A stretch of DNA of 64,000 nucleotides from Shigella phage ESh26. The notes under the pieces were generated by a model. It did not search any database. It was not told where the DNA came from and saw nothing but the letters and a program-made list of their open reading frames with translations. Positions 6,573-59,724 of the stretch are shown in pieces. The position numbers and the translations under genes are program-made. The DNA lies in sequence record ON528736. One strand, written 5' to 3'. Numbering within the stretch: position 1 is the stretch's first letter; each line of letters starts with the position of its first letter.

Positions 6573-7597
6573 ATCTTAGCGTATTTAGATAGCCGCATTT
6601 TAGCCATCAACCCTTGGGCAATATTATTTTTCATATATTCCATAATTTGTTTAGGGGTTGCACCTTCCTTTCTAATCATATCATTAACATCCTTTGATTT
6701 CCAGGGAGATTTATCCCAAAACATAACCCTTTCTCCTGCATCAACTAATTTAGTCATTCGTTTAATAGTGTCAGGGTGACGAGGTTCATTATCTAAAACC
6801 CACACACGTCTATCTTTAAATGGAACAATTTCTAGGTCTAATTGACCACCCGTAATAGCTATACCATTTTCAATAAAAAGTGAATCTATAGGTCCTTCTA
6901 GAACATATACATCACCATCTTTGACTCGTTCAACTCCATAGATTTTTGTTGCCTCAGGATAAGCTTTGATGGTGATATATTTTTGAGGAGCATCTTTCTT
7001 TAATGCACGTCCTTGAAAAGACTCGGCTTTTCCGTTAGCATTATAAATTGGAATAACAAGACGAGGCTCGGGCATTTCCTTTTTATATGTTCCTGGCGCT
7101 ATACTATTAACTAATTTAGGCCATTCGGTTGTAAACCAAAGATATTTCCATTTATCCTTTGGAATACAACGAGCTTTTACATATTTTATAATTGGATGGT
7201 CTTCCGCCAGTTTATCTAGTCTAATGCATGACGGAAGAGATTTAATTATTTTCTTCTCAGGTTGTTTAGAAAGTTCTTTAGGTTTTTCTACTGGACGACT
7301 TTTACCTTTTTCTTTTCTTATTTCAAAGATATACTCACGATATAAATCAGGTTCAAACTCCTTTAAATATATTCCGATTGGTGCATGATAGTTACAGTTA
7401 TAACAATGAATATTTCCTTCATTATTATCGCCATAATACCATCCACGGGCTTTATTTTGATCGGTTTTTGAATCTCCACAAACAGGACATCTAAACCGTA
7501 ATTTAAAAGTTGAACTATTATTTACTTGTGCGAATTTAGGTAAATGAGCTAATGCACGGTATGCAAACTCATTATCAATCCAAGGTATTGATGACAT
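6569..7597 (-). CDS. 61: DNA primase gp61
   Basis: 342 aa; zinc ribbon CPVCGDSK...HCYNCNYH; position before gene 41. Confidence 0.9.
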   Translation of the reverse strand: MSSIPWIDNEFAYRALAHLPKFAQVNNSSTFKLRFRCPVCGDSKTDQNKARGWYYGDNNEGNIHCYNCNYHAPIGIYLKEFEPDLYREYIFEIRKEKGKSRPVEKPKELSKQPEKKIIKSLPSCIRLDKLAEDHPIIKYVKARCIPKDKWKYLWFTTEWPKLVNSIAPGTYKKEMPEPRLVIPIYNANGKAESFQGRALKKDAPQKYITIKAYPEATKIYGVERVKDGDVYVLEGPIDSLFIENGIAITGGQLDLEIVPFKDRRVWVLDNEPRHPDTIKRMTKLVDAGERVMFWDKSPWKSKDVNDMIRKEGATPKQIMEYMKNNIAQGLMAKMRLSKYAKI

Positions 7598-7599
7598 TT

Positions 7600-7764
7600 T
7601 TACTCTTCTTTTTCTTTAGATTCCTCTTTTTTCTTTTTAGGAATCTGTTCAGGACCTTTATTTACTACAGCGCCTGACGTTGTTCCAGTGGAGATATTTT
7701 CAGGATTACCACCTGAATCTCCAGCTACCATATCTTCTTTGATAAATTCTTTATATGTTTTCAT
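7600..7764 (-). CDS. small lysine-rich protein with CTS-like N-terminus
   Basis: 54-aa ORF below table cutoff: MKTYKEFIKEDMVAGDSGGNPENISTGTTSGAVVNKGPEQIPKKKKEESKEKEE. Confidence 0.4.
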   Translation of the reverse strand: MKTYKEFIKEDMVAGDSGGNPENISTGTTSGAVVNKGPEQIPKKKKEESKEKEE

Positions 7765-7765
7765 A

Positions 7766-8392
7766 TTAACCTCTATTCATAAAAGCATTAAAAATTTGGT
7801 CATCAATAGAAACATTTACTTTAGACTGTTTTTCTGATAGTAATTCATATCCACATATTACAATTTTGTGATCAATATCAAAATGCACAGAAGCAATATG
7901 ATTAATGATGTTTTCAGTAAAGTCTAAATCAACATCAATATCTTTTTGACCACAGCCCAAAGGATAAATAATGCGAGTAATTCGATTATCTTTAACAAAG
8001 ATTCCACCGACATACTCTGTGCTGCGTTTAAAGTCTACACGCCGACGAAATGAAAAATATTCAGGCTCTTTATGAGCTCGGCTCATAGGACACAACGAGT
8101 AACTAGAATAAGAGATGTCAAATCCTACGCCTTCAATATGAGCCAAAGTATTACGATTAAACCAATTATAATCGTACGCCAAATCCATTAGATTATAATA
8201 TGTAAAAGGCACCGGATTAACATCATTAGTCACAAGCACGTAATTAGCAATTGCTATAATTTCATTGTTTTTAACGAATACAAACCGTGATTGATGGGAA
8301 TGACCTGGACCCGCGTTTTCACGATTAATGATATAACACTGGGCACCTTTATATTTGTATGTATCTTTGCACTTGTGCATTTGATAGAGCAT
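7766..8392 (-). CDS. hypothetical protein (61.2 position)
   Basis: 208-aa ORF, translationally coupled to sp. Confidence 0.5.
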   Translation of the reverse strand: MLYQMHKCKDTYKYKGAQCYIINRENAGPGHSHQSRFVFVKNNEIIAIANYVLVTNDVNPVPFTYYNLMDLAYDYNWFNRNTLAHIEGVGFDISYSSYSLCPMSRAHKEPEYFSFRRRVDFKRSTEYVGGIFVKDNRITRIIYPLGCGQKDIDVDLDFTENIINHIASVHFDIDHKIVICGYELLSEKQSKVNVSIDDQIFNAFMNRG

Positions 8393-8685
8393 TATTCACC
8401 TACCACTTCAGCGATGATATTTTTATTATTAAAGTTTTTATCGCAATACAGAACATAATTATACTGCATTACACCACCAGACTTAAGCTGTTTTTGCACT
8501 TCAGCTTTCATTTCAGGACGATCACGCTCAACAATATTCATAATATCTGCTTCAATTTGAGTTTCAACTTCAGTCTGATCTGCAGTCATAGACCATTCAC
8601 ACAAATCTTTGTCATAACCCGCCATAGCAGGCTGAGCAGCACAAGAAGATAAAGCAAAAATTATAGCAAAGATAAATTTTTTCAT
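8392..8685 (-). CDS. sp: spackle periplasmic protein
   Basis: 97 aa with signal peptide MKKFIFAIIFALSSCAAQPAMA; T4 Sp size and position. Confidence 0.8.
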   Translation of the reverse strand: MKKFIFAIIFALSSCAAQPAMAGYDKDLCEWSMTADQTEVETQIEADIMNIVERDRPEMKAEVQKQLKSGGVMQYNYVLYCDKNFNNKNIIAEVVGE

Positions 8686-8745
8686 GATAATCTCCTCAGT
8701 AGTTTATGTTTATATAGTATCTCAATTTCCAATAAAAGTAAACAG

Positions 8746-9045
8746 CTATTTTAAAACTTCTGCATAATCACATGTTACAAACTGTTTCTCTAACTTGACG
8801 ATTTTACGAAAGTATCTTTTGCATTGGCGAATCTGTCGCTTCGTAGGGCGCACAGCAAACTTAATAAATTCCACTCGACCAAATGGAGGACTTTCTTCTG
8901 CTGGAATATCTAATACCAATTCCCACGTATCTGCGATAAGTGCTTTGAATTGAGTATTTTTCCTGACGTTATACGGTGTAGGTTTAAATAAAACAATATG
9001 CATATTATCCTCGGCAATCCACTTCGCATACTTTCTTGTCATCAA
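8746..9045 (-). CDS. hypothetical protein (61.4 position)
   Basis: 99-aa basic ORF between sp and dmd. Confidence 0.45.
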   Translation of the reverse strand: MMTRKYAKWIAEDNMHIVLFKPTPYNVRKNTQFKALIADTWELVLDIPAEESPPFGRVEFIKFAVRPTKRQIRQCKRYFRKIVKLEKQFVTCDYAEVLK

Positions 9046-9187
9046 TGAAAGCTTTAACTAGCGCTTTATTAACTTCAGCATATTGAGTAGTAGCCCATTG
9101 AACGTCATCTTTCATCATTGTGATTTCTTTAGTAAACATGCTTTCGTTCTTAAACCACCCCATAAAAACTACCTTTACCAATTCCAT
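9005..9187 (-). CDS. dmd: Dmd, inhibitor of RnlA/LsoA toxins
   Basis: 60-aa ORF directly downstream of gene 41, T4 Dmd size. Confidence 0.8.
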   Translation of the reverse strand: MELVKVVFMGWFKNESMFTKEITMMKDDVQWATTQYAEVNKALVKAFIDDKKVCEVDCRG

Positions 9188-9213
9188 AAAAATCTCCTCA
9201 TTTAACCAACAAG

Positions 9214-9246
9214 ACTACTATACCATAGTCTTGTCGGCTTGTAAAC
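9214..9246 (-). promoter_or_regulatory. early promoter upstream of dmd
   Basis: gtaaac 9241-9246, actata 9216-9221. Confidence 0.5.
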
Positions 9247-10673
9247 TAAAATTTTAATTCATTTGCCAAAGCATCTAACTGAGCTCGAGCGGATTCGTTT
9301 CTTTGATAGCGATTCTGTTCAGCCTGAATCTGCTGTGAACCTGCTACTTCGTTCACTTCGGTTGGAGTAGAATCTTGCTCAATTTCTACCCATTTCTGAT
9401 TTCCTTTTTGAACACCCATCAAAAACTTATTCCATTTATTCTTATCACCGTATCGTGATTTGATTTGCTTAATGAGTTGTTGTTCAGCAGCTGCTAGCTC
9501 CTCGGTTTCAATGACCGCAAGCATAAAATCAGCTGTTGCTGGAAGACCGGCAGATTCTGCAATATCGCTCATGTTAACATCAGAAGAGTCCCAAGCTTGC
9601 TTACCAACCTGTGCTGCAGTCCAAAGAACAGTTTCGGTTTCAACAGCCAGAGCACGCAATTCCTCTGCGATAGCTTTAACAGTCGTGTAACTATTTTCTG
9701 AATAAACTCTGATGCGGCAAGATTTACAAATACCCAGATAGTCAACAATAATGATTGTTGGAACAAAATTCTTCTTGAGCTTTAATTCATTTAAAAGCGA
9801 CCGAAATGTATTAGCGTCTGCTCCACCAGTAGGATATTGCTTAACGATTAAACGACCGAGAGTAGATTTCTCACGCCATTTTTCCATTTTTCCTTTATAC
9901 TCAGCGTAAGAAATATGCCCATCATCAATGTCATCAAGGGAAACATCAAGCATATTAGCATCAATACGTTTAGCACAAACTTCTTCTGCCATTTCCATGG
10001 AAATGTAAAGAACATTGTGTCCGAGCTGCAAATAATCTGCTGCCAATGAACACAATCCTAATGACTTGCCAACGTTAACACCGGCCATTAAAACGTTCAG
10101 TGTTCCAGTTTCAGCTCCGCCTTTAGTAATTTTATTTAGAATTTTGAGTTTAAATGGAACCTTACGAGCTTTATTCATATAAGATAGCCAACGTGCTTCG
10201 TAGTCATCCATCCAATCATGACCAACGTAACTATCAAATGAAATTGATAATGCTTGGCGCATGATGTCAGGAATAGCACCAACATCCGGCATTTTCTTAT
10301 TTCGTTTTTCTGGAGGAAGCTCAGCATTAGTTTGAATTTCAATTATTTTAGACGTAGCATTAAACATCGCCCTTTGCTGAACATATTTTTCTGTTTCTTT
10401 TACTAACCAGCTGTGGTCTTCTGGAGAATCGGCTAGTTTCGAAATAAGTGTTTTTACACCAGAATATTCTGTTTCAGTAAATGAACTATTTTCTAATGCA
10501 ACATTTAACGCATTAATAGATGGAACGCTATGGTATTCATTAACATGAGATTTAATTAATTTGAATGTATTTTTAGCTGGACCACTTTCAAAATATTCTG
10601 AATCCATATATGGCCAAACTTTTGAAAAATAAGCTTGATCAAATATGAGATGAGAAAGAATAATTTCTACCAC
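9246..10673 (-). CDS. 41: replicative DNA helicase gp41
   Basis: 475 aa; Walker A GVNVGKS; matches remembered T4 gp41 along whole length. Confidence 0.95.
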   Translation of the reverse strand: MVEIILSHLIFDQAYFSKVWPYMDSEYFESGPAKNTFKLIKSHVNEYHSVPSINALNVALENSSFTETEYSGVKTLISKLADSPEDHSWLVKETEKYVQQRAMFNATSKIIEIQTNAELPPEKRNKKMPDVGAIPDIMRQALSISFDSYVGHDWMDDYEARWLSYMNKARKVPFKLKILNKITKGGAETGTLNVLMAGVNVGKSLGLCSLAADYLQLGHNVLYISMEMAEEVCAKRIDANMLDVSLDDIDDGHISYAEYKGKMEKWREKSTLGRLIVKQYPTGGADANTFRSLLNELKLKKNFVPTIIIVDYLGICKSCRIRVYSENSYTTVKAIAEELRALAVETETVLWTAAQVGKQAWDSSDVNMSDIAESAGLPATADFMLAVIETEELAAAEQQLIKQIKSRYGDKNKWNKFLMGVQKGNQKWVEIEQDSTPTEVNEVAGSQQIQAEQNRYQRNESARAQLDALANELKF

Positions 10674-29380: not shown

Positions 29381-29689
29381 TTAGTCTTCTATGATATCTC
29401 TATCATATCCAAGTGAAATGAGAGTTTCTTTGAAGTGTTTAATGTTCTTTTGTCTAGAATCATTGATGAAAATGACTGGATAACGAATGTTAAGAGATGT
29501 GAATCCAGCGCGTTTAGCAAGAGATACAATCAGTGGACGATCATACTCAATCTTACCATTATTTGTAAGAACTTTATAGAAAGTAAAAGGAGCATTGAGC
29601 TCCTTTAGAAGTTTTGTAACTGATTGACATCCAGGACAACGACCTACTTCATCTGGAATTCCATAGACTTCAATCTTATTTTGTTTCAC
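29381..29689 (-). CDS. nrdH: glutaredoxin/thioredoxin-fold protein (nrdH position)
   Basis: 102 aa; CPGC redox motif; adjacent to nrdG. Confidence 0.6.
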   Translation of the reverse strand: MKQNKIEVYGIPDEVGRCPGCQSVTKLLKELNAPFTFYKVLTNNGKIEYDRPLIVSLAKRAGFTSLNIRYPVIFINDSRQKNIKHFKETLISLGYDRDIIED

Positions 29690-52354: not shown

Positions 52355-52885
<531 letters not shown>

Positions 52886-53341
52886 TTAAAAGAGGCTGTT
52901 CATTATTCGGTAAAGTGAAGGGCCCATCACATATTGCCACTGAGTACGAGGAATAAGAGCAAAAGCATCCATCTCTGGAATCATAACGCCATCTTTATTT
53001 TCAAAATAAGACTCGCAATGGCAATTTCTGAACATCTCATGCTCTACTGGAATCGTATAATAAAATAACTGTAAGTCTTTATTACTAGAATATTTAAATA
53101 CACCTAGGTCTTCTAGAAGGTCTGGATTATAATTGTTAAAACCAGTCTCTTCTGAGCATTCTCTTCGTGCTGCATCTAATGCGCTTAAATCAGAATTTTC
53201 TACACGCCCCTTTGGAATATCCCAGCGATGTGCCATCATTCCAGGCTTACGAGAACCAGTAACTCGTCCCATAAATAAATCTTTATCTTCTGTCATAAAG
53301 ATAATACCAGCTGATAATGTTTTCATTTTAATTTCCTGCAT
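52886..53341 (-). CDS. nudE: Nudix hydrolase NudE
   Basis: 151 aa; Nudix box GRVENSDLSALDAARRECSEETGF. Confidence 0.8.
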   Translation of the reverse strand: MQEIKMKTLSAGIIFMTEDKDLFMGRVTGSRKPGMMAHRWDIPKGRVENSDLSALDAARRECSEETGFNNYNPDLLEDLGVFKYSSNKDLQLFYYTIPVEHEMFRNCHCESYFENKDGVMIPEMDAFALIPRTQWQYVMGPSLYRIMNSLF

Positions 53342-53811
53342 TCAGTGATAAAGTTATTTAAATTTTGGGTATATTTCTTTTCATCAAAAATCTTTTGCTG
53401 CCTACGTAACCGCCATGGCATTTCAATGAACACGCACCATATTCCTGATAGTACTGCTGCTGTAAAAATATTAACAAGTATAATTAAAAGAATCCAATCT
53501 TCCGTTCTGCCTACTGGACTTTCTCCAAAGAAGCAAAATACAAATGATGTCACAGGAAAACTAATAATATACCACAGAATAACCTTCTTATCTGTGAACC
53601 AATCAGCGTTCGTTAACTTAGCACGACCATTTTGAATACACACGAATTTATCATCTGTTACAGTAGATGGCTTAACTGCTTGATATCCCATTCTAAACTC
53701 CCTAATTAATCGTTTCTTTGTATCTTCAGAACAGCCGCTCCAGTCAACTCTATCAACTGAAATGCCATCGTCCCCATCATCTAAATCATACCAGCGAGTT
53801 TTTAAAATCAT
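53323..53811 (-). CDS. membrane protein, CRK-tail family member 1
   Basis: 162 aa; two TM segments; C-terminus NFITECRKLK. Confidence 0.5.
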   Translation of the reverse strand: MILKTRWYDLDDGDDGISVDRVDWSGCSEDTKKRLIREFRMGYQAVKPSTVTDDKFVCIQNGRAKLTNADWFTDKKVILWYIISFPVTSFVFCFFGESPVGRTEDWILLIILVNIFTAAVLSGIWCVFIEMPWRLRRQQKIFDEKKYTQNLNNFITECRKLK

Positions 53812-54170
53812 TTAATTTTCCTACAATCACTCACAAACTCTTCCATTGATTCTTTTTCAATATAAGACATGTAGTTATTATATTCCTTTAATTGTATTTT
53901 GTAATCCTTTTTTCTTTGCCAATTTATTTTAAAATTATCATAATGAAAATATATCATGGTACCAAAGAATGAAAATAATGAAATCGCTATAGTATAATGA
54001 AGTTCACTCCAAACTTCTATTATATTTACTGTGCCGTCGATATTTAAAATAAGACAGTCAATTAACAATCCAATAAGACTACCCGCAAGAGCTGCAGCCA
54101 ACGCCACAGCAAAAATTAAAAATGACTCAGGAAGCGAATATTTGACTTTATTTAGTTTTGGCTTTTGCAT
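53808..54170 (-). CDS. membrane protein, CRK-tail family member 2
   Basis: 120 aa; TM segments; C-terminus EEFVSDCRKIK. Confidence 0.5.
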   Translation of the reverse strand: MQKPKLNKVKYSLPESFLIFAVALAAALAGSLIGLLIDCLILNIDGTVNIIEVWSELHYTIAISLFSFFGTMIYFHYDNFKINWQRKKDYKIQLKEYNNYMSYIEKESMEEFVSDCRKIK

Positions 54171-54565
54171 CGTGATTCCTTAACAAATTTCATAATTTCA
54201 TCAAATTCATACGCAGCAAGTTTAAGCTGGTGTTCCTTTTTAATCTTTTTACACTGTGCTTTCCAATCACGTACGCGTTTACGATAATGTCTTCCTTGAT
54301 ACCAGTATCCTACCCAATTTACGGGTACTAATAAAAGTGGAACTATTAATGGAAGAATTAGCATTAACACAAGTATTTCGCCAGAATCAATATCAGTCAT
54401 AACATCTAAAACACCTCCAATAATCAGTAGAATTACAAATGATATAAGTATTACAGGACCTATTAATACATCAGTAGAAATTATCTGGCGCTTTAATTCA
54501 TACTTTAAAGGTTTACTTGGAAGATACATTGATGGCTTTGACATATTCTCTACATTCCTTAACAA
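54152..54565 (-). CDS. membrane protein, CRK-tail family member 3
   Basis: 137 aa; TM segments; C-terminus IMKFVKESRCKSQN. Confidence 0.5.
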   Translation of the reverse strand: MLRNVENMSKPSMYLPSKPLKYELKRQIISTDVLIGPVILISFVILLIIGGVLDVMTDIDSGEILVLMLILPLIVPLLLVPVNWVGYWYQGRHYRKRVRDWKAQCKKIKKEHQLKLAAYEFDEIMKFVKESRCKSQN

Positions 54566-55127
54566 ATTTTTCTAATAATAAATCGCTTTCAAAATTAGGA
54601 TTTTCCACGAATTTATCAAAAAGATCATCAACAATAGTTAAGATATTCTTTTTACTAAGAATACGTTTATTTTCATATTTTGTTTCAGAATCAACTATAA
54701 GAGTAAAGAAATATTTCTTTCCCTGAAATTTTACCGTAGTATCAATATAGAACAAATTTGACTTTTGTAAATTACGTTTAAACCATGCGTCACTTAAACT
54801 ATAAACGCCAAGATAATCATAATCGTCATTTAAATAACAAACTGTCCATTCAGGAGAAATGAAATCAGTAAATTCAACATCAAAATCACATGTCAATGAA
54901 TGAATTGATTCAATACTTTTAATGAGTATTCCAGGACGTATTAAAGACTTTTTACCTCTAGAAAATCTTCCAGAAAGACTTTCATCAGTTTCATATGAAG
55001 ACCCCCAATAGTAATTACGTCCTTCTGCCATGCGTTTAAGAGCATTTAGTAATTGGTCTGGAACATCAACCTGTCTTTGGAACTCTTCAAACATTGAATT
55101 GAAATCACTTTGCATTTTCATTTTCAT
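54513..55127 (-). CDS. hypothetical protein with related C-terminal motif
   Basis: 204 aa; C-terminus EKFVKECREYVKAINVSSK. Confidence 0.5.
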   Translation of the reverse strand: MKMKMQSDFNSMFEEFQRQVDVPDQLLNALKRMAEGRNYYWGSSYETDESLSGRFSRGKKSLIRPGILIKSIESIHSLTCDFDVEFTDFISPEWTVCYLNDDYDYLGVYSLSDAWFKRNLQKSNLFYIDTTVKFQGKKYFFTLIVDSETKYENKRILSKKNILTIVDDLFDKFVENPNFESDLLLEKFVKECREYVKAINVSSK

Positions 55128-55147: not shown

Positions 55148-55163
55148 AGGGGCCGAAGCCCCT
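55148..55163 (-). terminator. UUCG-loop hairpin after PspA-like gene
   Basis: aggggccgaagcccct. Confidence 0.55.
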
Positions 55164-55168
55164 TATCA

Positions 55169-55762
55169 TTATTTCAGGGAATTAATGTATTCCTGAACAT
55201 CGGCAGAGGTAGTTTCAACCCCAGAAATATTACCGTTAAAGGTTTCAACTCGAGCAAGGGTATCTTCAATATCAACCTTAGTCAGTGCTGCAATTTCAAC
55301 TACATCATCGGCAGTACTAATTCCAAGGGCATTTGCTGCACGAGTTTCACGGATATATTCCAATTTAACTGCAAGTTCTTGGCGAGCATCATCTAATTCA
55401 ACTACTTTCTTGGCGATTTCAATTCGCATTTCAGCATAACCGTCAGCCTTAGTAGTCAACTGCTCAGCTGTTCGACGATATAGTAAACCGAGTTTAGCAT
55501 GCATTGTTACATCTTGACCTTCGGAAAGAAGTTTACGAATTTCACGCTCTTTTGATTCAGCCTGTCGATTCTTTTCGACAATAAGTTCACGAATACGTTT
55601 TTCTTCATTAATAGATTTAACAGAAGCAGTTTTTAGATCTTTAATTTTATCAAGTAGTTTTGCTGCTGCAGCAGTATACTGTTCTTCAACAGATAGATTT
55701 TTAGCCATAGCAGAACCAAGTTTAGTGCGAATAAACTCAACAATTTTCTTCAGTGTGTTCAT
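55169..55762 (-). CDS. coiled-coil protein, PspA/IM30-like
   Basis: 197 aa; heptad-rich; [11 protein letters not shown] resembles PspA DDTLARM; terminator downstream. Confidence 0.45.
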
Positions 55763-55836
55763 AGTATTTCCTTAGGTTGATTAAGATTTAAAATCCGTGT
55801 AGAATTATATCCTGTTATTTGAGAAATGTAAACATG

Positions 55837-56784: not shown

Positions 56785-57348
56785 TTATTTATCTAGTTTA
56801 GTTATTATAGCTTCTGCAGCAGCTTTTAGCTTAGATGCGGTGTTAATACGATTTTTAATTTCAGTATACGCATCGCCAAGAACATCAAGGCTATCAGAAT
56901 AAACACTTACACTATTGCGTTCGCTATTTGAAATAGAACCTTTAGTTTTGCGGTCAAAATCGGTGTACACGTCTTGAAGATCGCGGGCTGCCTTCTTTGC
57001 ATCATCCAATGCATCAAGAGCTTTATTCAAAGCATTAACGTATTTTTTAGTGTCGAACATATTCTTAGAAATTTTAACAGGTGCGCGTTCAGGAGTAGCT
57101 AACACAGATTTAGGAACCTGAGCGCCAGATGCCAATTTCTTAGAAATTTTGAAAAATGCTTTATTGAATTTATTTTCTTGACTCATTGTAAAAGAACTAT
57201 TATCGATGTTGTACATTTCAATAGCTTTAGCTTTCCACTTAAGAAAATCGCCGCGGTCTTTTGGGTCCAATTGGAAGAATACTTTAGTAAGATCTGCTTC
57301 AGATGGTAATTTTGCTGCTTCGGTTAAAAATTCGGCATAGGTTTTCAT
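56785..57348 (-). CDS. internal head protein (IPIII-like)
   Basis: 187 aa; N-terminal MKTYAEFLTEA capsid-targeting-sequence-like; terminator downstream. Confidence 0.65.
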   Translation of the reverse strand: MKTYAEFLTEAAKLPSEADLTKVFFQLDPKDRGDFLKWKAKAIEMYNIDNSSFTMSQENKFNKAFFKISKKLASGAQVPKSVLATPERAPVKISKNMFDTKKYVNALNKALDALDDAKKAARDLQDVYTDFDRKTKGSISNSERNSVSVYSDSLDVLGDAYTEIKNRINTASKLKAAAEAIITKLDK

Positions 57349-57473: not shown

Positions 57474-57947
57474 TTATTTGATTTGTTTAGCAGACCAAAT
57501 GCGGTCTTTAATAATTTTTTGGATGTCTTCAACATACTCAAGAGAGTGAACATGCGGATTATCTTTGAAACTATAAGCACGGGCTAACTTTTGGCCTTCG
57601 GTTTTGATTACTAAAAGCTCTTTAAGGATAGCTTCATATTTAGCGATAATTCCTTTAACGATATTTTTTTCTTGTGCAGCTTTAGGATCTGCTTTAGGAG
57701 CAGGTTTACCCGAAGCCTTTGCAAAAGCAGCGCCAGTAGCAACTAAACTTTTCCAGGCCATACTAACTGCATTTCCCGTAAATCCTTCTGCTTTCATGTC
57801 GCGAGCAAATTGGAATCGTGATTCGTCAGAAGCATCTTTATAGGAATATTTACCCGCTGCAATGGCTGCTTTTGCGACAGCTTGAATTTCGGTGCTAGAT
57901 GCTTCATTTAACACCGCTTCATTTAAAAATTGAGCATATGATTTCAT
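57474..57947 (-). CDS. internal head protein (IPII-like)
   Basis: 157 aa; MKSYAQFLNEA; late promoter TATAAATA at 57988-57995. Confidence 0.65.
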   Translation of the reverse strand: MKSYAQFLNEAVLNEASSTEIQAVAKAAIAAGKYSYKDASDESRFQFARDMKAEGFTGNAVSMAWKSLVATGAAFAKASGKPAPKADPKAAQEKNIVKGIIAKYEAILKELLVIKTEGQKLARAYSFKDNPHVHSLEYVEDIQKIIKDRIWSAKQIK

Positions 57948-58703: not shown

Positions 58704-58779
58704 TGGTCGAGGCAGTAGGGATCGAACCTACGACCTAGGACTTAGAAGGTCCTTGCTCTTCCTTCTGAGCTATGCCCCG
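58704..58779 (-). tRNA. tRNA-Arg (anticodon TCT)
   Basis: Manual cloverleaf: acceptor CGGGGCA/TGCCTCG, loop CTTCTAA, T-loop TTCGATC, encoded CCA. Confidence 0.85.
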
Positions 58780-58783
58780 TAAT

Positions 58784-58859
58784 TGGGGTGACCGATGGGG
58801 GTCGAACCCATGACTACGAGAATCACAATCTCGAGTTCTACCAACTGAACTACGGCCAC
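58784..58859 (-). tRNA. tRNA-His (anticodon GTG)
   Basis: Manual cloverleaf: acceptor GTGGCCG/CGGTCAC, loop TTGTGAT, discriminator C, encoded CCA; no G at -1. Confidence 0.75.
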
Positions 58860-58972
58860 ATTAATACCTACTCCAACAATCAAGATGTCTTCACACGAAA
58901 TTAAGAGAAGAGTGATCAGTTCAACCCTATAATCGCGTCAAGTAGATATTAATGTGACAGTTGTCACAAATT

Positions 58973-59047
58973 TGGCGGACGTGATAGGATTCGAACCTAT
59001 AACCAATCGCTTAACAGGCGATCGCTCTGCCATTGAGCTACACATCC
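58973..59047 (-). tRNA. tRNA-Asn (anticodon GTT)
   Basis: Manual cloverleaf: acceptor GGATGTG/CACGTCC, loop CTGTTAA, T-loop TTCGAAT, encoded CCA. Confidence 0.8.
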
Positions 59048-59051
59048 AAAT

Positions 59052-59138
59052 TGGTGGGGAGTGATGGAGTCGAACCACCCGAGTCGCAATGACAATGGAT
59101 TTACAGTCCACACCGCTACCTCTACGGGATAACTCCCC
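59052..59138 (-). tRNA. tRNA-Tyr (anticodon GTA), long variable arm
   Basis: 87 nt; acceptor GGGGAGT/ACTCCCC, loop CTGTAAA, T-loop TTCGACT, encoded CCA. Confidence 0.75.
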
Positions 59139-59151
59139 TTAATTCTTAATT

Positions 59152-59226
59152 TGGTGGCCCTGGGTGGAATTGAACCACCATCTGGCGATTATGAGTCGCT
59201 TGCTTGAACCTTCCAGCTACAGGGCC
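59152..59226 (-). tRNA. tRNA with anticodon CAT (Ile-lysidine type as in T4, or Met)
   Basis: Acceptor GGCCCTG/CAGGGCC, loop CTCATAA, T-loop TTCAATT, encoded CCA; position after tRNA-Thr. Confidence 0.75.
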
Positions 59227-59227
59227 T

Positions 59228-59303
59228 TGGTGCTGATTGACGGAATCGAACCGCCGACCTTCTCATTACAAGTGAGTTGCTCTACCTACTGAGCTAAATC
59301 AGC
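59228..59303 (-). tRNA. tRNA-Thr (anticodon TGT)
   Basis: GCTGATTTAGCTCAGTAGGTAGAGC...CTTGTAA...GGTTCGATTCC...CAATCAGCACCA. Confidence 0.9.
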
Positions 59304-59308
59304 AAAAC

Positions 59309-59398
59309 TGGCGGAGGCGATAGGATTTGAACCTATGAGTCGCCGGAGCGACTGCCGGTTTTCAAGACCGGTGCATTAAACCACTCTGCCACGCCTCC
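59309..59398 (-). tRNA. tRNA-Ser (anticodon TGA), long variable arm
   Basis: 90 nt; GGAGGCGTGGCAGAGTGG...CTTGAAA...GGTTCAAATCC...CGCCTCCGCCA. Confidence 0.9.
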
Positions 59399-59400
59399 AG

Positions 59401-59474
59401 TCTCCATACAAGGATTTGAACCTTGGACCTCCTGATCCCAAATCAGGCGCTCTACCAAACTGAGCTACACGGAG
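59401..59474 (-). tRNA. tRNA-Pro (anticodon TGG), CCA not encoded
   Basis: CTCCGTGTAGCTCAGTTTGGTAGAGC...TTTGGGA...GGTTCAAATCC; 2 nt from tRNA-Ser (dimeric precursor as in T4). Confidence 0.88.
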
Positions 59475-59484
59475 TAAATTAAAT

Positions 59485-59558
<74 letters not shown>

Positions 59559-59563
59559 AAATT

Positions 59564-59650
59564 TGGTGCGAGAAGTGGGACTCGAACCCACAAGGAAATC
59601 ATTCCGCAGCATTTTAAGTGCTGTGCCTTTACCAATTTGGCCATTCTCGC
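59564..59650 (-). tRNA. tRNA-Leu (anticodon TAA), long variable arm
   Basis: 87 nt; GCGAGAATGGCCAAATTGGTAAAGGC...CTTAAAA...GGGTTCGAGTCCC...CGCACCA. Confidence 0.9.
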
Positions 59651-59651
59651 G

Positions 59652-59724
59652 CTGGGAATAAAGGACTCGAACCTTTGCATCCTGGAATCAAAATCCAGTG
59701 CCTTACCAACTTGGCTAATTCCCA
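59652..59724 (-). tRNA. tRNA-Gln (anticodon TTG), CCA not fully encoded
   Basis: TGGGAATTAGCCAAGTTGG...TTTTGAT...GGTTCGAGTCC...ATTCCCAG; abuts tRNA-Leu. Confidence 0.88.

Follow-up and report, generated by a model that had tools for sequence, protein, structure and literature searches.

T4-like phages carry hundreds of small early genes without known function, clustered in hyperplastic regions. In T4 itself, e.2 to e.5 (msp7 to msp4) lie in the order e.6-e.5-e.4-e.3-e.2-nudE-e, and in the databases they form four separate families, unrelated and of unknown function. We analyzed the same locus in a stretch of 64,000 nucleotides from Shigella phage ESh26 (sequence record ON528736), here called the window. 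In this phage the e.5, e.4, e.3 and e.2 proteins end in a common short peptide, here called the tail, which connects four classic T4 open reading frames (ORFs) with dozens of orphans from other genera. The four ORFs themselves have long been known in T4. What is new, as far as our limited search of annotations and literature shows, is the shared tail, selected at the protein level, its spread through the Straboviridae and its triple role; none of the three was found there. The triple role is that one stretch of DNA does three jobs, as conserved peptide, as ribosome-binding site of the next gene and as a repeat for gene gain and loss.

The window is of Tequatrovirus origin, and its top match is Escherichia phage ECP2301 (98.9%). 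When compared with the annotated T4 genome (NC_000866), its minus strand reads e.6-e.5-e.4-e.3-e.2-nudE-e. The synteny from e.6 to nudE-e on the early strand is the same in NC_000866 and in the 495 phage records that cover at least 80% of the region. Identity to the T4 orthologs of e.2, e.3, e.4 and e.5 is 83-99%. Each of the four ORFs covers a whole PHROG profile: PHROG 2607 for e.5 (E 2.7e-109), 2604 for e.4 (E 7.4e-71), 2330 for e.3 (E 1.1e-60) and 2203 for e.2 (E 9e-78). In the older T4 record L13089 the genes of this stretch are msp3 to msp8, with e.6 as msp3 and e.5 to e.2 as msp4 to msp7. The Pfam entries tied to these T4 genes are PF26896, PF26873 and PF26876. The genes are as follows.

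55169-55762, minus strand: e.6, 197 amino acids, coiled-coil protein, first gene of the operon
54513-55127, minus strand: e.5, 204 amino acids, soluble, first tailed gene after e.6, T4 ortholog by synteny
54152-54544, minus strand: e.4, 130 amino acids from the ATG, inner-membrane protein with two transmembrane (TM) segments
53808-54170, minus strand: e.3, 120 amino acids, inner-membrane protein with two TM segments
53323-53811, minus strand: e.2, 162 amino acids, with a 75-amino-acid cytoplasmic N-domain, two TM segments and the tail
52886-53326, minus strand: nudE, Nudix hydrolase (Pfam NUDIX, E 1.2e-13, and T4 annotation), translationally coupled to e.2
52355-52849, minus strand: lysozyme e, separated from the tailed array by nudE

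For e.4 the ATG at 54544 is preferred, and the TTG at 54565 is unlikely as a start.

A common tail in the window and across T4-like phages

The e.2 protein ends NNFITECRKLK and e.3 ends EEFVSDCRKIK. The C-termini of e.4 and e.5 are MKFVKESRCKSQN and EKFVKECREYVKAINVSSK, respectively. The pattern common to all four proteins is [LIF]-[ED]-x-[FW]-[IV]-K-x-C-R-[KR], and the tails are located as follows.

54534-54581, minus strand: e.5 tail helix, translation LLLEKFVKECREYVKA, containing FVKECR at 54549-54566
54167-54187, minus strand: e.4 tail motif FVKESRC, with the e.3 ATG within the R-C codons
53817-53837, minus strand: e.3 tail motif FVSDCRK, whose TGT AGG AAA codons are also the e.2 Shine-Dalgarno site
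53332-53352, minus strand: e.2 tail motif FITECRK, whose TGC AGG AAA codons are also the nudE Shine-Dalgarno site

A reading made from the letters of the window alone (the sequence-only reading) had reported related tails on three membrane proteins and the 204-amino-acid protein. This is confirmed, and the four tails that it quoted are correct. Its motif, F-x-x-E/D-C/S-R-K, is real, but the E/D at +3 is not kept across lineages and the core is [FW]-[IV]-K-x-C-R.

The similarity of the tails is beyond chance. The regular expression F[IVLM].[ED][CS]R has six matches in the 45,822 amino acids of six-frame segments from the whole window, and four of the six are these consecutive genes, at 3-11 residues from the stop. 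In shuffled proteins the chance of finding it in the last 16 amino acids is 2.5e-5 to 1.9e-4 per protein; the expression was chosen post hoc. A hidden Markov model (HMM) of the tail, seeded with 33 non-redundant tails including these four, gave 16-19 bits for the four ORFs only, and the next best ORF in the window and T4 1-50 kb had 8.9 bits. These four ORFs thus combine such a score with a motif no more than about 16 residues from the stop. The match FINDSR, 23 amino acids from the end of NrdH (window 29381-29689), was rejected as a chance match in an unrelated glutaredoxin fold.

Outside the tail the four proteins have little in common. They fall in four different PHROGs and in separate Pfam entries. 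When the family alignments were compared with hhalign, probabilities were 81-94% with the tail, whereas every pair was at or below 18% without it. In every comparison involving e.2 the aligned region was the tail only (19 columns). The e.3-e.4 alignment covered 75 columns, TM2 and the linker included, at a probability of 93.6%, so full-length paralogy is tentatively assigned to e.3 and e.4 only. In single-linkage clustering without the tail all membrane proteins fall together; the e.5-like proteins of all lineages also cluster without it and match one another by fold. The duplicated set of the sequence-only reading is thus to be qualified: apart from the longer e.3-e.4 similarity, the likeness between the families is nearly all tail. 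On these alignments the tail is the sole robustly shared element. It may be a remnant of a shared ancestor or a module that recombination has spread.

Loci from other phages were sampled by anchoring on the neighbour e.6, whose identity ranged from 99% down to 33%. In every T4-like lineage sampled, genes downstream of e.6 carry the tail, including Mosigvirus, Dhakavirus, Karamvirus, Tulanevirus and RB43. Lineages differ in how many tailed genes they have, from 1 to at least 6. Mosigvirus has five (e.5, e.4, e.3, RB69 ORF133c and e.2), ending EQFIMECREYVK, MEFVKEIRCK, ENFIKECRK, ENFIKECRGK and ERFITECRNLR. Karamvirus also has five, Dhakavirus has two to four, and four further IMG/VR lineages have up to 6 each. 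Aeromonas phage AS-gz has a single tailed gene, e.5-like, ending MFVDYCRRTAPKRE. In RB43 an e.5-like gene carries KFIHSCKK, and the motif lies about 25 residues from the C-terminus. The first tailed gene after e.6 is always e.5-like, with a 65-amino-acid ORF in between in RB43. The carriers are membrane proteins with two TM segments, the e.5-like soluble protein and some small soluble proteins.

The 33 tails of the HMM define the consensus, numbered from the F. Position -3 is L, I or F; -2 is E, D or N; 0 is F (29) or W (4); +1 is I (25) or V (7); +2 is K (21); +3 is variable; +4 is C (25) and otherwise I, V, M, A or S; and +5 is R (31) or K (2), followed by K, R or E. The e.4 family has S, I or V where the others have Cys. 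No other window of 8 amino acids is as conserved as the tail in any of the four ortholog families. The conservation of the tail is 0.49 against a mean of 0.16 in e.5, 0.58 against 0.29 in e.4, 0.54 against 0.29 in e.3 and 0.60 against 0.23 in e.2. Orthologs without the motif would have spoken against the sequence-only reading; the result is clearly the opposite.

Wider searches returned the same locus. An exact-pattern scan of IMG/VR gave 28 sites, five of which end T4-like genes of e.2/e.3 type (4 intact ORFs and a truncated e.3 in locus L051). A tail-profile search of 5.8 billion proteins gave 88 candidates and nothing beyond orthologs or fragments of e.2, e.4, e.5 and RB69 ORF133c. A word-index search with e.3 gave Tequatrovirus matches only, and e.5, run exhaustively with phmmer against 1.84 billion representatives, had 6 matches. 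Within the sequence sampled, the tail is confined to the e.6-linked locus of T4-like phages.

A second C-terminal motif was seen at this locus. Tandem small soluble proteins ending G-x-W-[VI]-S-S-S-x-x-C (RB69 ORF136c-139c and relatives) lie between e.3 and e.2 in Mosigvirus, Dhakavirus, Karamvirus and other lineages. Neither the window nor the parts of T4 checked contain them. Their genes were found at the following positions of the sampled loci.

L003, 3857-4651
L005, 3665-4704
L031, 6299-6825
L020-L024, about 7560-9340

The tail DNA as peptide code, translation signal and repeat

The reading frames overlap by 32 nucleotides between e.5 and e.4, by 19 between e.4 and e.3, and by 4 (ATGA) at both e.3/e.2 and e.2/nudE, as expected from the overlapping starts and stops of the sequence-only reading. 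Two further elements bear on transcription.

55804-55832, minus strand: sigma-70-like promoter TTTACA-17-TATAAT (11/12) upstream of e.6
55148-55163, minus strand: GC-rich hairpin in the e.6-e.5 gap; its loop is UUCG, and on the coding strand no run of T follows

In L13089 (T4) an early promoter is annotated at the position equivalent to the first element and a stem-loop after msp3 (e.6). The gap between e.6 and e.5 holds no promoter comparable to the site upstream of e.6. Because the promoter lies upstream of e.6 and the e.6-e.5 gap holds no more than a hairpin lacking a T-run, e.6 through nudE are probably a single early operon. The hairpin itself may serve in RNA stability or processing and not in termination.

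The tail codons also carry signals for the next gene. In e.3 and e.2, C-R-K is encoded by TGY AGG AAA, which serves as the Shine-Dalgarno site of e.2 and nudE, respectively, and is followed by the ATGA overlap. In e.5 and e.4, the K-E codons AAG GAA are the likely Shine-Dalgarno sites of e.4 and e.3; the e.5 tail DNA overlaps both this site (AAGGAA) and the ATG (54544) of e.4. The e.4 and e.5 tails have 16 identical nucleotides in common, AAATTTGTTAAGGAAT. Among the sampled tails, the downstream gene overlaps or abuts in 34 of 37, with the motif over its translation-initiation region, and the next ATG is usually 17-32 nucleotides past the F codon. All this would fit a tail that is a by-product of nucleotide constraint, where the Shine-Dalgarno site and start of each coupled gene impose similar RNA and hence similar peptides. 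The codons do not follow that account. In 38 tails, F is TTT in 25 and TTC in 10; I is ATT in 19, ATC in 6 and ATA in 4; and C is TGT in 16 and TGC in 12. Arg uses all six codons (AGA 13, AGG 7, CGT 8, CGA 3, CGC 3 and CGG 1). The next gene's Shine-Dalgarno site shifts relative to the motif and lies in or after it (e.g. WG01 ORF134, L012 and L026). The motif is also retained where the next start lies beyond the stop, at gaps of 29, 29 and 79 nucleotides (AS-gz, L026_8845 and L031_6878). Moreover, conservation within the motif is lowest at +3, where the E most often supplies the Shine-Dalgarno site in T4. Because all synonymous codons are used, the Shine-Dalgarno position varies and the motif persists without overlap, we conclude that the tail is selected as a peptide with an RNA role overlaid, and we consider it very improbable that nucleotide constraint alone accounts for it.

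The third role concerns gene gain and loss. In an IMG/VR Tequatrovirus locus (L007, 7900-8000) and in GenBank phage UFV-AREG1 (L059), e.2 is missing cleanly. Their e.3 ends CRKLK, that is, an e.3 body with an e.2 end, and is joined directly to nudE. At the junction two alignment blocks overlap by 22 nucleotides inside the tail repeat. This repeat can recombine because some 20-odd near-identical nucleotides end successive genes. As judged from these junctions, the tail repeat serves as a recombination junction for whole-gene gain and loss and marks cassette boundaries. In reference T4 (L001, NC_000866 67490-67960), e.2 has two frameshifts and is annotated with 102 amino acids; TM2 is read in a different frame, after which the original frame returns for the tail. 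Unlike that of T4, e.2 of the window phage is intact (162 amino acids). Since e.2 is frameshifted in T4 and absent elsewhere, it is dispensable.

Topology, e.6 and possible functions

Hydropathy gave two TM segments each in e.2, e.3 and e.4 and none in e.5. In the three membrane proteins, the loops between TM segments hold 0-1 K/R residues and the N- and C-terminal segments hold 4-15. By the positive-inside rule this distribution predicts that both ends are inside and the tail is cytoplasmic. The claim that e.2, e.3 and e.4 are inner-membrane proteins with a cytoplasmic tail is thus borne out as a prediction.

An AlphaFold 2 (AF2) model of e.5 places the tail in a helix at residues 183-198. 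The helical hydrophobic moment of this tail is 0.56 compared with a shuffle mean of 0.25 (p~0.009), as in an amphipathic helix. Fold matches of the e.5 model were uncharacterised T4-like proteins and one weak NuoC-like match.

The orthologs of e.2 have a further motif at the N-terminus, W-x-[ND]-L-D-D-G-x-x-G-I-x4-V-D-W-[ST]-G-C. One of its residues is a second invariant Cys, and the motif matches no family.

53587-53811, minus strand: N-terminal 75 amino acids of e.2, cytoplasmic, holding the conserved W...GC motif

The neighbour e.6 is 51-99% identical in lineages as far as the Aeromonas phages and 33% identical in RB43. It is co-linear with tailed genes in all ten lineages examined (10/10), always upstream of the tailed e.5-like gene, which makes it a candidate partner of the tail. 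The AF2 model of e.6 is a helical hairpin, and its fold match is generic, with SMC, BAR and chemoreceptor hairpins scoring equally. The neighbours of the e.6/e.5-like pair in AS-gz and RB43 are nrd, thioredoxin and glutaredoxin genes, and no lysozyme gene is nearby. Two further ideas about e.6 were considered. Its C-terminus, EYINSLK, was rejected as a cryptic tail (-1.3 bits). As a PspA, e.6 found no support at the sequence level, with no match to Pfam PspA_IM30 and an hhalign probability of 0.2% against E. coli PspA, and the fold match is the generic one. An alignment with Vipp1 is collinear at E 4.6-7.2.

Database searches gave little on function. Against Pfam, NCBIfam and PADLOC, e.2 to e.6 had no match, and NUDIX for nudE was the sole match. 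Sequence searches of PDB with e.2, e.5 and e.6 gave nothing significant, and BLASTP gave no similarity to Imm or Sp (best E 1.8-7.4). In public records of e.3 and e.4 orthologs, e.3 is sometimes called "sulfurtransferase" or "DNA primase". No profile search that we ran supports these labels, and they look like propagated annotation errors. In a published CRISPRi-ART screen of T4 (PMC11879866), the one publication in our limited search that mentions these genes, e.2 to e.6 are listed as function unknown and their knockdown is scored "Not Fit", which we read as no fitness effect.

The explanation that we favour, and hold at slightly less than even weight, is that the tail is a common cytoplasmic docking helix on e.5, e.4, e.3 and e.2, which would be early accessory proteins made from one operon, e.6 to nudE, by coupled translation. 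The tail would act in docking or assembly at the cytoplasmic face of the inner membrane and tie otherwise unrelated, fast-evolving proteins to one shared partner. The tailed proteins could be one another's partners; e.6 and a host protein are the other candidates. The variable bodies would carry lineage-specific, dispensable functions. We read the tail in this way because a cytoplasmic, helical and partly amphipathic tail is the sole conserved feature of fast-evolving proteins from one operon. Several points weigh against it. The docking partner is a candidate that we infer, and e.6, as a protein that would bind the tail, has a C-terminus that does not resemble it. The AF2 model of e.5 is only moderately confident (predicted local distance difference test, pLDDT, 63.8; predicted template modelling score, pTM, 0.63), and the amphipathic signal is not significant for e.2, e.3 and e.4 (p 0.12-0.16). 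The closely following gene in most tails may add a constraint at the RNA level. In T4 the tail HMM covered 1 to 50 kb. Finally, the conserved Cys and Arg could mean chemistry (metal, redox or modification) and not docking. We also considered a bolder form of the docking reading, in which the tail recruits changing membrane and cytosolic effectors to e.6, a possible PspA/ESCRT-III-like scaffold, so that e.6 to e.2 would be a Psp-like module on the host inner membrane whose effector cassettes are swapped through the tail DNA. This form is very doubtful.

Chemistry at the Cys-Arg pair would mean joint metal binding, a redox-sensitive link or covalent modification. Of 38 tails, 28 have the Cys and 35 the Arg, the e.2 orthologs have their second invariant Cys (VDW[ST]GC), and the redox genes around the AS-gz and RB43 pair fit such a role. 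However, several membrane paralogs have I, V, M, A or S instead of Cys, the whole e.4 family has no Cys at this position, and there is a single Cys with no CxxC. The substitutions better fit a small hydrophobic packing residue than an obligate ligand, and we give this chemistry little credence. A turnover signal is somewhat less remote, although still unlikely. Here the tail would be a C-terminal degron or a protective cap, read by FtsH, ClpXP or Lon, that sets the lifetime of early proteins. It is C-terminal and cytoplasmic on otherwise unrelated early proteins, and T4 manipulates host proteolysis via PinA, for which a pin gene is annotated. On the other side, the distance from motif to C-terminus varies over 0-15 residues and reaches about 25 in RB43, and the last residues are basic and variable, which sets them apart from known C-terminal degrons.

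Exclusion, immunity or lysis timing has a similarly low standing. The membrane proteins would then be holin/antiholin-like, exclusion or immunity factors, and the tail a regulatory cytoplasmic domain. Their small size, two TM segments, predicted N-in/C-in topology and basic cytoplasmic C-terminus are the general architecture of class II holins and Imm. The array lies upstream of nudE-e in Tevenvirinae, and the genes are dispensable and vary in copy number, as arms-race genes do. Yet the operon has an early-type promoter, soluble proteins bear the same tail, and neither Imm/Sp similarity nor a PADLOC match was obtained in the searches above. The T4 holin is T, which is encoded elsewhere. The link to lysis drawn by the sequence-only reading does not hold up, with nudE between the array and e, the e.6/e.5-like pair of AS-gz and RB43 standing without lysozyme nearby, and the early-type promoter upstream of e.6. 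In the screen, knockdown was without a fitness effect. A part for these genes in lysis or superinfection exclusion gains no support from the data but is also not refuted by them, and e.2 to e.5 may act in exclusion or immunity.

Other features of the window are on the minus strand too. Two ORFs between e.8 and the tRNA cluster have N-termini like the capsid-targeting sequence of internal proteins, MKTYAEFLTEA and MKSYAQFLNEA. The ipII and ipIII genes that T4 carries between denV and e are missing there in the window.

56785-57348, minus strand: ORF with a capsid-targeting-like N-terminus
57474-57947, minus strand: ORF with a capsid-targeting-like N-terminus
58704-59724, minus strand: cluster of 11 tRNA genes beyond these two ORFs

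Comparison with known systems

Ordinary translational coupling resembles this locus in the ATGA or longer overlaps at every junction and in the AGGA-type Shine-Dalgarno sites within tail codons. By itself, however, coupling conserves no peptide, whereas here the amino acids are constant and the codons and Shine-Dalgarno position are variable. The degrons of ssrA type place their signal at the extreme, typically non-polar C-terminus, and the tail does not. For the Psp system (PspA with PspB and PspC), likeness to e.6 has no support at the sequence level.

Class II holins and other small proteins with two TM segments, such as T4 Imm, are closer in form. They share a length of 100-160 amino acids, two TM segments with both ends predicted inside, a basic cytoplasmic C-terminus and a site upstream of the endolysin gene. 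When tested as class II holins, the membrane proteins show the predicted architecture but neither late expression from a lysis cassette nor a requirement in lysis. They differ from class II holins in their early operon, in nudE lying before e, in the soluble carrier of the tail and, in the screen, in knockdown without a fitness effect.

The capsid-targeting sequence of T4 internal proteins (N-terminal MKTYQEFIAE, cleaved by gp21) is likewise short, terminal and conserved, and the proteins that bear it are hypervariable, dispensable and encoded in a plastic region of T-even genomes. This sequence has a superficial E-F-I-x-E resemblance to the tail, and both conserved ends may favour cassette exchange. 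However, the capsid-targeting sequence is N-terminal and cleaved, whereas the tail is C-terminal and sits on membrane proteins, which are unable to enter the prohead. Capsid targeting or a gp21 site ([LI]-x-E) was ruled out for the tail itself by its C-terminal position, by E at +3 in only 15 of 38 tails and by the tail HMM, which misses the internal-protein-like N-termini. The tail offers an experimental handle on a whole class of genes, with the peptide as bait and three or four residues to mutate. Should it prove to address proteins to a common membrane complex, the tail would be a C-terminal counterpart of the T4 capsid-targeting sequence.

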